A stretch of 64,000 bases of DNA from a virus, in the IMG/VR virus record IMGVR_UViG_3300012952_000020, positions 1 to 64,000 of that record; one strand, 5' to 3'. Position numbers and translations under genes: made by a program. Under the pieces are notes generated by a model. The model saw nothing but the letters and a program-made list of their open reading frames with translations. It was not told the origin of the DNA and searched no databases. Shown here in pieces: positions 11,986 through 42,080 of the stretch. Position 1 is the stretch's first letter; each line of letters begins with the position of its first letter.

Positions 11986-12026
11986 GGTTTCCTCCTGCCT
12001 TTCGGCGTTCACTGAATCGGGTGTCT

Positions 12027-12094
12027 GCCTCGTCAGCACCGGGGTAACAAATCCCCGATGTACCCGTCGCCTCCTTGGGACGACGAGTTTCGGC
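12027..12094 (-). ncRNA. Hammerhead ribozyme, type II (HHR-1)
   Basis: gcc GAAA CUCGUCGUC-loop-GGCGACGGG UA/ CAUCGGGG-loop-CCCCGGUG CUGACGA ggc: full core, three stems; predicted cut after 12061 (GUA). Confidence 0.85.
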
Positions 12095-12102
12095 TATGGT
12101 TT

Positions 12103-15524: not shown

Positions 15525-15925
15525 GCTGTCCTCCACTGCACTGTGGAGCGGAGCCATTTCCAAAGCCGGATGTACCAAGGGAGCCTGACGACCAGCGGTG
15601 CCGGGTGCGTCTTGCTCTCCTTCCACTCAAGGAACGGGACGCCGGGATCGACTCTCCTATACATGGCGTACTCCCTGCGGAGCATCGCCGTTCGACTGAC
15701 CGTTCGGTACGACCAGCCTCCGTTGCCGTGGTACTTGCTCCACCCGTGTTGGGGAATACCGACCTGCAACCCAGCCTTGACGCACATGTCCCATACGCCT
15801 GACTTGGTTCGCCGTTGTCCTCCAGGTCCAGTGCTGGTGACTGGACCGAACACGAATGAACCGTCCTCCAACTCCGTCAGCCAAGGGATGCCTGTGTTCG
15901 TTGGTTCTCCAGTAGCCGCCCTCAT
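15521..15925 (-). CDS. Hypothetical protein
   Basis: 134 aa, coupled. Confidence 0.6.
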   Translation of the reverse strand: MRAATGEPTNTGIPWLTELEDGSFVFGPVTSTGPGGQRRTKSGVWDMCVKAGLQVGIPQHGWSKYHGNGGWSYRTVSRTAMLRREYAMYRRVDPGVPFLEWKESKTHPAPLVVRLPWYIRLWKWLRSTVQWRTA

Positions 15926-16116
15926 TGGACACCTCCCTTCTCCAAGTCACGCTTGTAGGACTGTGCCTGCATCCGTGAGCACCCACTGACGATGGGTCGG
16001 GCTTCTCCGTGAAAGACAACCCCTCGGTGTCCTTTGGGGAGATCCGACTTGCGGAAGACCGCCCAACTGTAACTGTCATCGCCATTGAACTTTCGCAACG
16101 TGTATGCCGGTTTCAT
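15922..16116 (-). CDS. Hypothetical protein
   Basis: MKPAYTLRKFNGDDSYSWAVF...; coupled. Confidence 0.6.
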   Translation of the reverse strand: MKPAYTLRKFNGDDSYSWAVFRKSDLPKGHRGVVFHGEARPIVSGCSRMQAQSYKRDLEKGGVQ

Positions 16117-16343
16117 TCGACACCCCCGTTCTGCTCGACGTAGCACTCCTCGTACGCTGCCTTGTGACCTTCGTACGTGAAGTTGACTCCTGCATCTTCC
16201 AGCTTCGCCGTGGCACAGTCGTAAGCCGACCACCAGCGAGCCTCCTTTGCCGGTTGCGCTACCAGAATCCAGTAGCCCAATCCGACAACCACGATGGCTG
16301 CAAAGAACAGCCCTGCCAACAGTTCCTTTGTGCGCTCGCTCAT
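16113..16343 (-). CDS. Small membrane protein
   Basis: N-terminal hydrophobic helix. Confidence 0.65.
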   Translation of the reverse strand: MSERTKELLAGLFFAAIVVVGLGYWILVAQPAKEARWWSAYDCATAKLEDAGVNFTYEGHKAAYEECYVEQNGGVE

Positions 16344-16600
16344 GCTTCACCTCCACCGAAATACTCTGTGGAGTAGGTGACGATCCAAGGAGCGTTGCCC
16401 GCACCTTTCTGCATCGCCTTGTAGATGCACGTTTCACCGAGGAACGCGACGATGGTTCCTGCGTCCTTGTCGTGCTCGACCTTGAAGCCCTCAAGCCACA
16501 CCATGTGCTTCACGAGGTCCATCACCTCCTTGTGGGTTCCGAGGCACGAACGCCTTGGGCGTACTGGACTGTTTGCAAATCCTTTTACTGCTGCTTCCAT
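16340..16600 (-). CDS. Hypothetical protein
   Basis: GGAGG RBS. Confidence 0.65.
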   Translation of the reverse strand: MEAAVKGFANSPVRPRRSCLGTHKEVMDLVKHMVWLEGFKVEHDKDAGTIVAFLGETCIYKAMQKGAGNAPWIVTYSTEYFGGGEA

Positions 16601-16655
16601 TTTACTATCCTCCGTCCTCTCGGACTTCTTCGGGTAGGTTTACCCTTGTTTGTCA

Positions 16656-16721
16656 ATGACCTGTCTCATCAGCACGGGGAGGTCATCTTCCGTGGACTCC
16701 CCCCGAAGGGGGAGTTTCGAC
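16656..16721 (-). ncRNA. Hammerhead ribozyme, type II with pseudoknot (HHR-2)
   Basis: guc GAAA CUCCCCC UUCG GGGGGAG UC/ CACGG..AUGACCU..CCGUG CUGAUGA gac AGGUCAU; loop I pairs 7 bp with the 3' tail; cut after 16695 (GUC). Confidence 0.92.
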
Positions 16722-16723
16722 TG

Positions 16724-18112
16724 TTACTTCTTCCGCTGCTGCAACAGGTGAATCATCGCCTGCGTAGCAAGGTCCAACTGCCGACGCTCATGGGCAACGT
16801 CACCGTCATCCCCTGCGAGGTGAGCGACCTCGTGGAACATGACCTCGATGGTGTCTGCCAAGTTGCCGACCGTCTTCCGACTCAGGCAGATGACCTTCTC
16901 CCCTGACTTGAAGGTGCCTCGCACATCATCACCCTCGAACTCCACGACGTTCACATGTGAGAGCACGTCGTACTCGAAAGTGTCCGTTGCGTCCGTTGCC
17001 TGAATCAACCTGCACGCATCGTCGATGTTCTCCTGCTCCTGATCCGTCAGGTCATCCCAACTGTACGTCTGCGTGACCGTCATCCTCCCGTCCCGCTTGG
17101 CGAGGTGGAAGCCTTTGATCCGGGTGTCCTGCTCCAGAACCTCCAATCGGCTTCTGCCTACCACAACGCCCTTCTTGCCAACGTGTGCCAGCTCCTTGGC
17201 TTGGGACAGGTTCTCAACTGGAACTGCGCCTTCACCGTGCTTCCCGAGGAACCGATCTCCGATGTGCTTGACCACTGTGGAATCGTTGACGAAAGCGTAA
17301 GCCTGCTGCGCCTCCATCGCATTGGGATTGTCCAGCACCGCTTCGACGTGATCCCCGAACTCATCCGGCTCATCCCTGAAAGCGGCGACGGTCAGCTTGC
17401 CCAGCGCCCACTTCAAATCCCACTCGTCCACCAACTCACGGTCACGATTGGTTGCCCGTCGGAGGTCGTACCCGTAGGACAGATTGTCCGGTCGCTGCAT
17501 CACCAGCACGCCCTTGTTGAAGATCATGCCCTTGAACTCAGGCTGGAGTAGAATCCGCTCGCCCTCGTACCCGACCGTCTTCACCTTCTCCGGGTCGAAC
17601 GCCTCGTTGGTGAACAGGAACCGATTGCGGAGAGCATCGTACTCCTCCTGCGATACCCCGTACACCTTGACCAAGAACCCTTCACGCGGGTTCTTCAACT
17701 TTCGTGTACGGATGTGGAGCGTGTGACAGTCGAGGTCGCCGTGATGCCTAATCTCGGGAATCCACTGCTCGTCCATGTTCCGAATCACCATGTGGTATCG
17801 GCTCGACCGAGCGATGGTCAACATCGCCATCGGCAGTCCCTCTCCGAACTCACCAATCAGGTTTGCATCACTGCGGGAACCCGAATGGCCCATCGCCATC
17901 GCCTCTGCCGGAACCTTGATACCGAAGTTGTAGATGTTGACGCAGCCGACGAATCCCTGATGCTCCTGCTTCGGGTGAAACTCGACTTTCAGCTTGCCGA
18001 GTCCGTCATGCCTGCTCTCCTCTCCGTCCTTGCCGTTCGCCATCAACTCTCGCAGTGCGTGGTTGATGTTCCATCCCGGCTGATAGTTCATATCCAGTGT
18101 CGTCTTGATCAT
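16724..18112 (-). CDS. GHKL (HATPase-like) ATPase with C-terminal HExxH metallopeptidase-like domain
   Basis: RELMANGKD N-box, IGEFGEGL G-box, C-terminal MFHEVAH..H. Confidence 0.75.
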   Translation of the reverse strand: MIKTTLDMNYQPGWNINHALRELMANGKDGEESRHDGLGKLKVEFHPKQEHQGFVGCVNIYNFGIKVPAEAMAMGHSGSRSDANLIGEFGEGLPMAMLTIARSSRYHMVIRNMDEQWIPEIRHHGDLDCHTLHIRTRKLKNPREGFLVKVYGVSQEEYDALRNRFLFTNEAFDPEKVKTVGYEGERILLQPEFKGMIFNKGVLVMQRPDNLSYGYDLRRATNRDRELVDEWDLKWALGKLTVAAFRDEPDEFGDHVEAVLDNPNAMEAQQAYAFVNDSTVVKHIGDRFLGKHGEGAVPVENLSQAKELAHVGKKGVVVGRSRLEVLEQDTRIKGFHLAKRDGRMTVTQTYSWDDLTDQEQENIDDACRLIQATDATDTFEYDVLSHVNVVEFEGDDVRGTFKSGEKVICLSRKTVGNLADTIEVMFHEVAHLAGDDGDVAHERRQLDLATQAMIHLLQQRKK

Positions 18113-18168
18113 GCTACTTTTCCTCCGTCCGTACCCTCCCCTCGGAGGGTGTTGGACTTCTATGGTTA

Positions 18169-18230
18169 CTCCCCTGTCTCATCAGTACAGGTAGGGGAAA
18201 CTTCCTGTAGACCCCGTTAGGGGTTTCGAC
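18169..18230 (-). ncRNA. Hammerhead ribozyme, type II with pseudoknot (HHR-3)
   Basis: guc GAAA CCCC UAAC GGGG UC/ UACAGG..UUCCCCU..CCUGUA CUGAUGA gac AGGGGAG; 7-bp loop I/tail pairing; cut after 18210 (GUC). Confidence 0.92.
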
Positions 18231-19258
18231 TATTTCTTGCTCGCCTTGCGCCTGATGTACTTGGCGTTCGCAGCCACTCGCTGCGACCTCGACTTCTTCT
18301 CGACCTTGACCGTTTCCTTCGCCACTCGAATCTTGGCTCCTGCGCCCTTCTCGATTGCGAAAGCGTGTGCCTTCGCCTCGGCATCGGCTCCGGTGAACCT
18401 CCACCACTTCCGACCGCCCTTGACCTTCACCTCGTACCCGACGACCTTCTCGTACGTCTCCGTCGCTGGTCTGCGCTTGGGCAACGCCGACTGCCCCTTG
18501 GCATCTGCGTACCTTGCCCGCTTCCCACTGTGCCAGCACTTCTTGGGACCGACTCGCTTCTTGTGAGCCTCGACATCCTCGGGGGCGAAGAACTCTGCCG
18601 TTGCCACCAACCCTGTCGTCTTCTTGCTCCAGTCCCACACGGCTGGGAGGACTGCCAACTTCCTTCCCCACTTGTCGGTACGCCACTTGGGTTCGTTGAT
18701 GTTGTACTTGGGTACGTCTGCGGCTTCAATAACTGGGATGCGTACGAACACGATGGCGGGTGACTCGCAGGCGACCACGACCTCCAGAATGTACTTGTCA
18801 GCACCGGGCATCCGACTGATTCGGTGGGCGAAGTCCTTTCGGAAGTAGTCCTTGACCACGACCCACCGGCTACCGAGAAGGCACTTGTTTCCGCTCACCG
18901 TATCGGCAACCTTCTCCGTGCGCTTCGCCCTCGCAGCCTTCTTCCGACGACGGGTTGCTGTGGCCCGCTTCGCTGCTGACCGTCGGACCTTCTTCATCAC
19001 GAACTTCTCAGCCTCGGTGTACACCTCGTCCTGCGTGTCGTGGTCTGCCTTGTTCACTGCGGCGACTGCTGCGGTGACCAACTGGTAGAATGTTTCCTCG
19101 TCCCTGTCGGGATTGCACTTGGGGTCGTTCTCGTTCGCCTTGTGGAACTTCGCACCCCACTTGGCGATCCACTTGTTGTGTCGCTCCGTGGGGGTCACGC
19201 CACGGGAGGTGGTCTGGTCAGTCCCCAAACCGGGCATTGAGTTTCCGAGGCCGATCAT
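18230..19258 (-). CDS. Lys/Arg-rich hypothetical protein
   Basis: 342 aa, GGAGG RBS. Confidence 0.75.
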   Translation of the reverse strand: MIGLGNSMPGLGTDQTTSRGVTPTERHNKWIAKWGAKFHKANENDPKCNPDRDEETFYQLVTAAVAAVNKADHDTQDEVYTEAEKFVMKKVRRSAAKRATATRRRKKAARAKRTEKVADTVSGNKCLLGSRWVVVKDYFRKDFAHRISRMPGADKYILEVVVACESPAIVFVRIPVIEAADVPKYNINEPKWRTDKWGRKLAVLPAVWDWSKKTTGLVATAEFFAPEDVEAHKKRVGPKKCWHSGKRARYADAKGQSALPKRRPATETYEKVVGYEVKVKGGRKWWRFTGADAEAKAHAFAIEKGAGAKIRVAKETVKVEKKSRSQRVAANAKYIRRKASKK

Positions 19259-19431
19259 GCTGCACCTCCACCGCCGACGATTGAATCGTACCCGGCGAGG
19301 TATCCGACGCTGTGGTCCTGTCGCTGCTTGCCAGCTTCGGCATCCTGTGCGCCCTTGGCGTAGTCCTCGTTCCAGTTTTCAACGAGTGGCGAACTCGGTG
19401 TCGGGAACTTGATTGTCAACTGCTGTGTCAT
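19255..19431 (-). CDS. 58-aa hypothetical protein, first gene of the early operon
   Basis: MTQQLTIKFP...YAKGAQDA...GYLAGY; AGGAGG RBS. Confidence 0.6.
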   Translation of the reverse strand: MTQQLTIKFPTPSSPLVENWNEDYAKGAQDAEAGKQRQDHSVGYLAGYDSIVGGGGAA

Positions 19432-19509: not shown

Positions 19510-19538
19510 AATATAGCATGTTTACAGGGGTTTGTCAA
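19510..19538 (-). promoter_or_regulatory. Strong sigma70-type promoter of the early operon
   Basis: TTGACA-N17-TATATT with TG extension; A-rich upstream. Confidence 0.8.
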
Positions 19539-19591
19539 GCACTTTCTTTTACGCGATCACCCGAGCGTTTTCGCCGCGTCTGTGGGCTACT

Positions 19592-24975: not shown

Positions 24976-25014
24976 ACCATCTCCTATATCAACTTGTCCT
25001 TGTTTGTCAAGAAC

Positions 25015-38358: not shown

Positions 38359-39099
38359 CTAACACCCGTCAGGTGTAAGGTCACGAAGCCTCCGAGTCAT
38401 TGACTCTACTCTGGAGGTGTACGTTTCATTGTCCACGCACCTGTTACCCTGATTGTAGTGACAGATGCCTTTCCTTCTGTCCCGTAGTCTACGGATGAAC
38501 CTCGCACATACGCCTGCGGAATACTCTACGCTTTGTAGCTCCGCGCACTCGTCAGCGACGGTCCTTCCAGAATCTCGTAGCCAACTCCGATTGCCGGTGT
38601 AGCCATACGAATACTTTGCCTGCTGTTGAAACATCCCGCACGACCTTCCTTGGTCGCCAGTGACGTTCTCCGTCCACCGGCTCTCGACATACCCAACTGC
38701 TGCCAGTTCGTATACGTCAACACCTTCGTACAAGGCTGCGAGGATCATCGCCGCTGCGAACCTGCGAGCGTCCTCCAACTCCAACCTCGGTTGGACCTCC
38801 TGCATGGCGTTAGCCAAATAGTACACGTAGTCCCTGACTCCTGCCTCATGTGCAGGGATGGACGTGTCTACGCAGCACTCTGGACACTTAGCACAGTGGT
38901 CCTCGACGTAGCGTTGATGCCAGTTCTCCTGCTCCGGGTCAGGCTCCGGTTCGGAAACTGGTTCCGAGGTGGGTGCCTCTGTGGTCGGTTCGGGAGGACT
39001 CTCCGGTTCCTCGCCTCCGCAACTGCCAAGGTAGCTAATGATGCCTACCGTCAACCCTGTCACTATTCCGTACACAAAGTACCGTGCTATCGCCTTCAT
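38359..39099 (-). CDS. Membrane-anchored/lipoprotein lytic transglycosylase (SLT-like)
   Basis: Hydrophobic N-terminus ending LGSC, Pro/Glu linker, VESRW, GMFQ, HYN. Confidence 0.65.
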   Translation of the reverse strand: MKAIARYFVYGIVTGLTVGIISYLGSCGGEEPESPPEPTTEAPTSEPVSEPEPDPEQENWHQRYVEDHCAKCPECCVDTSIPAHEAGVRDYVYYLANAMQEVQPRLELEDARRFAAAMILAALYEGVDVYELAAVGYVESRWTENVTGDQGRSCGMFQQQAKYSYGYTGNRSWLRDSGRTVADECAELQSVEYSAGVCARFIRRLRDRRKGICHYNQGNRCVDNETYTSRVESMTRRLRDLTPDGC

Positions 39100-42045: not shown

Positions 42046-42074
42046 AGTGTATCGGGTTTTACTATGTTTGTCAA
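42046..42074 (-). promoter_or_regulatory. Sigma70-like promoter
   Basis: TTGACA-N17-TACACT. Confidence 0.7.
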
Positions 42075-42080
42075 GTACCT

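Follow-up and report, generated by a model that had tools for sequence, protein, structure and literature searches.

A type II hammerhead ribozyme that starts on the stop codon of a phage gene, and the same layout among phage hammerheads

Why does a hammerhead ribozyme begin on the last base of a stop codon, and is the ribosome that terminates there involved in its cleavage? This question is raised by HHR-3, a hammerhead located at positions 18232-18169 on the minus strand of the IMG/VR virus sequence IMGVR_UViG_3300012952_000020, which belongs to an uncultured marine phage. The stretch analysed here, referred to as the window, consists of 64 kb of this 77.5-kb record, which is estimated to be 78% complete; the sequence is present in a marine metagenome run. 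An earlier note on this DNA, made from its letters, had proposed that a terminating ribosome would cover the 5' arm of the ribozyme and that cleavage may be coupled to translation. As the analysis showed, HHR-3 is genuine but represents an ordinary case of a known ribozyme class; it was missed by the Rfam thresholds. Its flush stop codon is not special but the norm for this class in phages, where stop codon, ribozyme, leader and start codon follow each other. It is likely that HHR-3 is a functional type II hammerhead of the pseudoknot type, situated between cotranscribed genes, which cuts the transcript and for which the flush stop is the standard architecture of the class.

Read from the sequence, HHR-3 is a complete type II hammerhead; its coordinates include the stop codon, which overlaps it, as well as the pseudoknot tail. 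The stop codon UAG of an upstream open reading frame (ORF) of 342 codons occupies positions 18232-18230. The 3' strand of stem II, GUC, was identified at 18230-18228 both in the sequence and by a structural scanner, and G18230, U18229 and C18228 form with G18178, A18177 and C18176 a stem II of three base pairs (bp). G18230 is used twice, as the last base of UAG and as the first base of stem II, as had been claimed in the earlier note, in which all coordinates for HHR-3 proved to be correct. The next segment (18227-18211) contains the GAAA core (18227-18224) and the stem III hairpin ACCCC-UAAC-GGGGU (18224-18211), in which ACCCC (18224-18220) and GGGGU (18215-18211) form 5 bp around the UAAC loop. 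The cleavage triplet is GUC, with C18210 as C17, and the cut is predicted between C18210 and U18209. The stem I hairpin (18209-18186) consists of UACAGG (18209-18204), a loop of 12 nucleotides (nt), AAGUUUCCCCUA, and CCUGUA (18191-18186), which gives 6 bp. The 3' segment (18185-18169) is composed of the CUGAUGA core (18185-18179), the 5' strand of stem II, GAC (18178-18176), and the pseudoknot tail AGGGGAG (18175-18169). This tail begins at the first base 3' of stem II and pairs with UUCCCCU in loop I (18199-18193), resulting in a pseudoknot of 7 bp including one G-U pair. HHR-3 contains the core of the type II class, with CUGANGA, GAAA, the pair A15.1-U16.1 (A18224-U18211) and an N-U-H triplet (GUC). 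The permutation is also that of type II: stems I and III are looped and stem II is open, with G18178-C18228 as the pair G10.1-C11.1.

In comparison to the Rfam model RF02276 (clan CL00010), HHR-3 obtained a score of 29.5 bits with an E-value of 1.9e-5 per genome, both in a scan of 161 bases and in a scan of the whole virus record. In a default Rfam scan of the window, a second hammerhead, HHR-2, was the sole hit (40.1 bits). Permissive scans of 12 kb and of the 64 kb added a third one, HHR-1 (12019-12095, 34.7 bits), without HHR-3. The shortfall of HHR-3 is due to loop and stem lengths that differ from those of the Rfam seed. For a covariance model with 15 bp, designated R2, other viral contigs supplied 110 type II hammerheads; R2 replaced an earlier model, R1, which caught stem III alone, and its structure was supplied explicitly. 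With filters off, R2 gave 62.9 bits for HHR-2, 52.0 bits for HHR-3 (E about 2e-13) and 35.9 bits for HHR-1, and its best non-hammerhead match in the whole window was 13.8 bits. The alignments of HHR-3 to RF02276 and to R2 span the full models. A strict structural scanner identified the same three sites in the window and gave no match in mononucleotide shuffles of 60 loci. In an RF02276 search of the 77.5-kb record, three hammerheads were found, every one of them on the gene strand. Stem III of HHR-3 was predicted with pair probabilities of 0.90-0.97 in every flank context tried (0-120 nt upstream, 0-60 nt downstream). For stems I and II, the pair probabilities are uninformative, also with regard to interference by the flanks, since these stems compete with the pseudoknot in a nested model; the pseudoknot-free minimum free energy structure puts the pseudoknot helix in place of stem I. 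A scan of the window for hammerheads of types I and III gave a single match, which was rejected as an artefact overlapping HHR-1.

HHR-2 is located at 16722-16655 on the minus strand and lies above the RF02276 cut-off. Its predicted cleavage is after C16695 (16695/16694), and the first base of its stem II comes 3 nt after the end of the UAA stop codon (16726-16724). The stem II sequences of HHR-3 and HHR-2 are identical (GUC/GAC). The earlier note had assigned the same geometry to both ribozymes. This is the case for the 12-nt loop I and for the 7-bp pseudoknot starting from the first base after stem II, but stem I of HHR-3 is one pair longer (6 bp, compared to 5 bp in HHR-2), and in HHR-3 four loop bases precede the pseudoknot, compared to three in HHR-2. 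HHR-1 (12096-12019, minus strand) has a CUGACGA core and a GUA cleavage triplet, and it follows an ORF of 91 codons with the stop codon UAG at 12105-12103. This ORF ends in UAG-AAA-CCA-UAG (12105-12094, minus strand), with the second UAG in frame 9 nt later, and the G of the second UAG (12096-12094) is the first base of HHR-1 stem II.

The position of stop codons was analysed in two samples of phage type II hammerheads, which were selected by exact core patterns; both comprise sites among the matches listed, about 120 loci. Sample A is based on the core pattern common to HHR-2 and HHR-3, with at least 141 instances in at least 119 loci. The structural scanner, applied to the pattern loci and to loci of gene homologues, gave 200 sites; six sites with a stem II shorter than 3 bp were dropped and duplicates with identical ribozyme and 30 nt upstream were removed, resulting in 183 unique sites. 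These include the three of the window, and after one edge site was set aside, 182 were evaluable. Sample B was obtained with an independent pattern, in which stem II is GGC/GCC and the two bases before stem II are free; here, at least 146 instances gave 144 unique and 138 evaluable sites. Upstream frames were counted from 60 codons. In Sample A, the stop codon of the longest upstream frame ends on base 11.3 in 64 sites, one base before it in 36 and two to four bases before it in 27, and nine sites are without an upstream frame of this length. In Sample B, the stop is on base 11.3 in 18 sites, one base before in 29 and two to four before in 36. When the sites of the window were removed and the scan was extended through the ribozyme, a flush stop (-4 to 0) was found in 124 of 179 sites of Sample A and in 81 of 137 of Sample B, and five ORFs in each sample end inside or beyond the ribozyme. 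With one site per contig, the flush fraction is 0.73 (A) and 0.61 (B), and with an ORF threshold of 100 or 150 codons, 76-80% (A) and 63% (B) of the sites with such an ORF are flush. As a control, all stop triplets on the same strands were counted, of which 3,711 of 42,115 (8.8%) close a frame of at least 60 codons; for UAGs at position 11.3, this number is 64 of 88.

A description of phage type II hammerheads abutting stop codons was not found in targeted literature searches. The term "stop codon" does not occur in the main text of PMC3088659 or in the accessible text of PMC6765202 and PMC8782182. In the accessible text of PMC13725137 it occurs twice, for a luciferase reporter construct and for ORFs in totivirus circular RNAs. 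The passages on "type II hammerhead" in the accessible part of the preprint 10.64898/2026.09.16.752053 are figure legends on circular-RNA replicons.

The different pseudoknot sequences of HHR-2 (AUGACCU/AGGUCAU) and HHR-3 (UUCCCCU/AGGGGAG) had been regarded as natural covariation in the earlier note, and at the class level this view was confirmed. A helix of at least 5 bp between loop I and the tail was identified in 136 of the 183 phage sites of Sample A, compared to a mean of 36.5 and a maximum of 50 when the tails were permuted among these sites (200 permutations). The helices are formed by 73 distinct loop-side strings. HHR-3 belongs to the upper tail of this sample, since a 12-nt loop I is found in nine sites and a pseudoknot of at least 7 bp in 15. 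In an alignment (A3), a subgroup of phage type II hammerheads was identified with a 3' tail that reads ...CC-AUCAG, of which AUCAG is the reverse complement of the core sequence CUGAU. Examples are L102:4463-4520, L221:3897-3968, L200:6652-6722, L196:2236-2297, L255:856-914, L264:1252-1309 and L180:3562-3634; these copies have a short loop I and no obvious pseudoknot. From its sequence, the AUCAG tail could sequester the core in a hairpin and provide an alternative, inactive fold.

The ORF that ends on HHR-3 (19258-18230, minus strand; 342 codons) was taken from the ORF list and has a clear coding signal. In frame, its codons have a log-likelihood of +0.56 per codon, versus -0.58 and -0.37 in the other two frames; the last 50 codons score +0.70, so that the frame is coding to its last codon, and the GC content at third codon positions (GC3) is 0.78. 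No Pfam or PHROG match was obtained for its product, and the only hit in the protein collection was the protein itself. Judged by composition, this ORF is a real gene. A rival ORF crossing HHR-3 on the minus strand (18114-18686) was rejected with a coding score of -0.21 per codon, and an ORF on the plus strand (17714-18220) also crosses the ribozyme. The idea that UAG is a rare stop codon in this phage was rejected as well, since 26 of 77 ORFs end in UAG.

For HHR-3, the most likely function would be the constitutive cutting of a polycistronic RNA, with the ribozyme folding during transcription. Cutting at a distance of 20 nt from the end of the upstream gene would leave an upstream product in which the stop codon is intact and is followed by these 20 nt, with the stem III hairpin and a 2',3'-cyclic phosphate at the 3' end. 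In the downstream product, the first base of stem I, which is paired, would bear a 5'-OH, and the stem I hairpin would precede a structured leader with the ribosome-binding site behind it. Both products would separate, since they are joined only by the 3-bp stem II. In bacterial RNA decay, both such ends should resist end-dependent nucleases. The cleavage sites 18210/18209 and 16695/16694 delimit an RNA of 1,515 nt, and HHR-3 together with HHR-2 would trim the message of the 462-codon gene between them to a single-gene RNA of this length. The self-cleavage of HHR-3 in vivo and the stabilising effect of both ends are proposed on the basis of its anatomy and of the published behaviour of the class.

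Several points weigh against this assignment. With 29.5 bits, HHR-3 is below the curated gathering cut-off of RF02276 (37 bits), and it was lost to the Rfam filters in the permissive 12-kb and 64-kb scans. The R2 score is partly obtained by construction, because HHR-3 fits the pattern behind 60 of the 110 seed sequences, though the stem and loop terms of R2 are independent of the pattern by which this seed was collected. The ORFs in the survey are stop-to-stop frames and not curated gene calls, and the sites were chosen by exact core patterns among the matches listed. Both the cleavage and the expression of HHR-3 are deduced from sequence, and a look-up of runs holding this virus listed no RNA run. 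Furthermore, the HHR-3 site is not conserved by synteny among the loci scanned. Single-protein queries with both flanking proteins gave no close relatives in viral contigs, and no DNA match to 15900-19300 was found among named phages. A search with alignment A1 identified one viral locus and 24 metagenome loci with relatives of the 462-codon gene. Near these relatives, a hammerhead was found in two of 20 loci by the Rfam scan and in two of 25 by the regex scanner; L133, L142 and L145 were covered by the regex scanner alone, and L127 duplicates L123. The hammerhead is located just downstream of the gene in L125 and 1 kb upstream in L129, so that neither lies directly upstream of the gene, unlike HHR-3. 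In the one virus record searched, which is behind L123, no hammerhead was identified.

Among the alternatives, gating of cleavage by translation has to be considered first. Here, the flush stop would have been selected, and terminating or queued ribosomes would melt or occlude the 5' arm, so that cleavage, and with it the fate of the downstream RNA, would depend on the level of upstream translation. In a variant, ribosomes would keep the 5' flank unstructured and thereby aid the correct folding. A bacterial ribosome with a stop codon in the A site shields roughly 9-10 nt beyond this codon. For a ribosome on the UAG of HHR-3, the covered stretch extends from U18229 to about C18220, over the GAAA core, the stem II 3' strand before it and most of the stem III 5' strand behind it. 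The earlier claim that the ribosome would cover the 5' arm is in agreement with this geometry. Because the 5' arm and half of the core are covered, the active fold would be impossible while the ribosome sits on the stop codon, and a coupling of cleavage to translation is geometrically plausible. The sharing of G18230 between stop codon and stem II points in the same direction, as does the flush layout throughout the class among the matches listed (124 of 179 and 81 of 137 sites).

The support for gating by translation comes from this geometric overlap and from the layout of the class, but the same pile-up of stop codons at the closest position allowed by the sequence is predicted by mere saving of space. 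Position 0 is the closest that a stop can come to the core, because G-Y-C-GAAAC does not permit a stop codon within it. This pile-up is also predicted if the 5' flank has to be unstructured, or if the intergenic space is completely filled by stop codon, ribozyme, leader and start codon. The typical member is also tight at its 3' side: the next start codon follows at a median distance of 20 nt, counted from 7 nt beyond stem II, where the pseudoknot tail approximately ends, and this distance is 10-29 nt in 129 of 175 sites among the matches listed. The typical unit consists of stop codon, ribozyme, ribosome-binding site and start codon. On the other hand, the flush layout at the 5' edge is independent of the tightness at the 3' side, with flush fractions of 0.73 versus 0.78 (A) and 0.64 versus 0.61 (B) for 3' gaps below 30 nt versus at least 30 nt. 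The flush share also exceeds the value for junctions without hammerhead in the same loci, of which 34% of 2,856 have gaps of at most 15 nt, a crude baseline for compaction in which small genes and opposite-strand genes are missed. In the window, 42 of 76 gene junctions are longer than 10 nt and the hammerhead leaders are loose with 34-56 nt, yet the stop codons are located 0, 3 and 9 nt before base 11.3 for HHR-3, HHR-2 and HHR-1, respectively. Perhaps the layout is partly due to packing; a specific preference for a 5' flank under active translation, or a selected link to translation, would also agree with these data. The tested hammerheads are described in the main text of PMC3088659 as fast constitutive cutters. 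Taken together, gating of HHR-3 by translation is rather unlikely. That the flush stop is a selected design principle, by which upstream ribosome traffic gates the folding of the 5' arm and intercistronic cleavage reports upstream translation, is to be regarded as unlikely.

Excision followed by circularisation would be a different use of the same two cuts. The ends of the 1,515-nt RNA would reassemble as a chimeric hammerhead, or would be joined by an RtcB-type ligase, so that the message of the 462-codon protein would be circular. In favour of this, one gene lies between HHR-3 and HHR-2 on the same strand, 1,515 nt equals 3 x 505, and a chimera could draw on the identity of the two stem II sequences; but GUC/GAC is the commonest stem II (171 of 213 scanner hits, a count biased by the search pattern), and 3 bp would be a weak clamp on two ends. 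Since the ORF has a normal stop codon, a circle offers no obvious coding gain, and no RNA ligase gene was identified among the eight neighbouring proteins annotated. Circularisation is very improbable for this locus.

The hammerhead core might also be a joining point for phage gene cassettes, in which units of ribozyme, leader, gene and stop codon are arranged head to tail and the flush stops are a by-product. Dense arrays of type II hammerheads, with one ribozyme after nearly every small ORF, were observed in the viral contigs L159, L019, L046, L171 and L087; the arrays flank single small genes, with eight hammerheads in 4 kb in L159 and five in 3 kb in L019. According to the main text of PMC3088659, the flanked genes are not always the same, and the presence of hammerheads near relatives of the 462-codon gene is patchy, both in line with a cassette boundary. 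Against it, the maintained core and stems and the covarying pseudoknot argue for selection on an RNA function and not on a DNA site, which makes this explanation very unlikely. Finally, a chance motif or dead relic, that is, a hammerhead-like string without activity, is hardly credible: the score of HHR-3 below the Rfam cut-off, its loss to the filters in wide scans and a pseudoknot-free minimum free energy of the 68-nt element no better than that of shuffles (z = -0.12) would fit it, but every invariant core position is intact, the three stems and the 7-bp pseudoknot are present, R2 gives 52 bits compared to 13.8 for the best background, the scanner has no match in shuffles, and two further hammerheads of the same architecture occur in the same operon region.

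For HHR-3 as a ribozyme cutting a polycistronic transcript, the RNA on its 3' side would become the leader of the downstream message. This 56-nt leader (18168-18113, minus strand) was read from the sequence and contains an outer helix GUCC/GGAC (18157-18154 with 18130-18127) around a 7-bp hairpin (18150-18133). The Shine-Dalgarno sequence GGAGGA (18126-18121) directly follows the helix. The leaders behind HHR-3 (18157-18121) and HHR-2 (16626-16608), both on the minus strand, share a GUCC...GGAC helix directly before GGAGGA, which encloses the inner 7-bp hairpin in the HHR-3 leader and closes a GAGA tetraloop in the HHR-2 leader. The exact 10-mer GGACGGAGGA occurs at only two places in the window, namely in these two leaders. 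In the HHR-1 leader, GCC-GAAA-GGC is followed by AGGAGGA.

The gene downstream of the leader (18112-16724, minus strand; 462 codons) was identified from the ORF list, by its PHROG match and by alignment as a member of phrog_6077, and is bracketed by HHR-3 and HHR-2. The function of phrog_6077 is unknown; some relatives of the 462-aa protein carry HATPase_c (GHKL ATPase) domains. A C-terminal HExxH motif, H427-E428-x-x-H431, is kept in all 15 aligned members. These sequence features suggest an ATPase fused to a metallopeptidase-like module.

A promoter-like site, TTGACA-17-TATATT with a TG, is present at 19538-19510 on the minus strand and agrees with 11 of 12 consensus positions. It is located 1.3 kb upstream of HHR-3; all genes in between are on the same strand, and no terminator-like site was found between it and HHR-3 on that strand. 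This site probably starts a transcript for which we infer the order 58-codon ORF, 342-codon ORF, HHR-3, 462-codon gene and HHR-2. The site includes a copy of an over-represented motif, [C/A]TTGACAAA, for which 34 matches with one mismatch allowed were counted in the window versus 13.6 expected, a number reached in none of 100 shuffles. Of these matches, 27 have the orientation of the genes and often come right behind stop codons; examples are 19531-19539, 16649-16657, 25003-25011 and 42067-42075, and one overlaps the pseudoknot tail of HHR-2. The motif is probably the -35 element of phage promoters.

Nearly all large ORFs of the window are on the minus strand, and the neighbours fit a phage context, with a RusA-like resolvase, an ATP-dependent DNA ligase and a DpdA-like transglycosylase. 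A protein of 525 aa (22013-20436, minus strand) matches phrog_887, annotated as queuine tRNA-ribosyltransferase, with an E-value of 2e-35, and this similarity hints that the phage DNA is modified with 7-deazaguanine. At 38984-39054 on the plus strand, opposite to the gene strand, the fluoride riboswitch aptamer is matched weakly (22.9 bits versus a cut-off of 34, E 0.05), probably by chance.

Synthetic ribozyme insulators have been placed between promoters or cistrons, where self-cleavage uncouples parts of the transcript and gives the downstream RNA a 5' end that is defined and hairpin-capped. They are engineered and based on other hammerhead topologies, and their likeness to HHR-3 lies in the working logic, as an analogy. 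Among natural systems, pseudoknotted type II hammerheads clustered around prophage genes were described in 2011 (Perreault et al., PMC3088659). As far as given in the main text, these ribozymes share with HHR-3 the canonical core and a pseudoknot between loop I and a tail immediately 3' of a short stem II, and the record of HHR-3 likewise contains several hammerheads on the coding strand that flank genes in phage DNA. HHR-3 differs from them by its Rfam score below the cut-off, its long loop I of 12 nt and its 7-bp pseudoknot; the flush stop layout was found in the present analysis. In the same paper, a 5' end of the HHphage ribozyme of the haloviruses HF1 and HF2 was mapped within three nucleotides of the cleavage site. 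Like HHR-3, HHphage is a hammerhead in a phage polycistronic transcript just upstream of a gene, but it has a variant core needing high salt and lies 13 nt before the start codon, compared to the canonical core and the structured 56-nt leader of HHR-3.

In Desulfovibrio vulgaris, three type II hammerheads were shown by cyPhyRNA-seq to self-cleave in cells (PMC8782182). They are of the same ribozyme type as HHR-3, are located near phage-like genes and show in vivo that such elements cut. This study concerns another organism, and in its accessible text the position relative to stop codons is not addressed. Processing of polycistronic transcripts by hammerheads has been suggested and is considered unproven in a review of 2019, in the part accessible (PMC6765202).

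HHR-3 adds one phage type II hammerhead, which the standard Rfam thresholds miss. The result for the class is more useful: at about 60-70% of roughly 320 phage sites listed, the upstream gene ends on the first paired base of the ribozyme or within 4 nt of it. Even if this layout is only tight packing, it still provides a rule for annotation, namely to look for hammerheads immediately after stop codons. With the flush layout, the reason for which phages carry these ribozymes also becomes accessible to a precise experiment. If translation does gate cleavage, this would be a coupling of mRNA processing to translation without protein and without ligand, and translation of the upstream gene would also be reflected in how stable the downstream message is and in how well it is translated. 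For bacterial and phage hammerheads, the function of which is described as unproven in the accessible text of PMC3088659 and PMC6765202, it would provide a concrete regulatory role.

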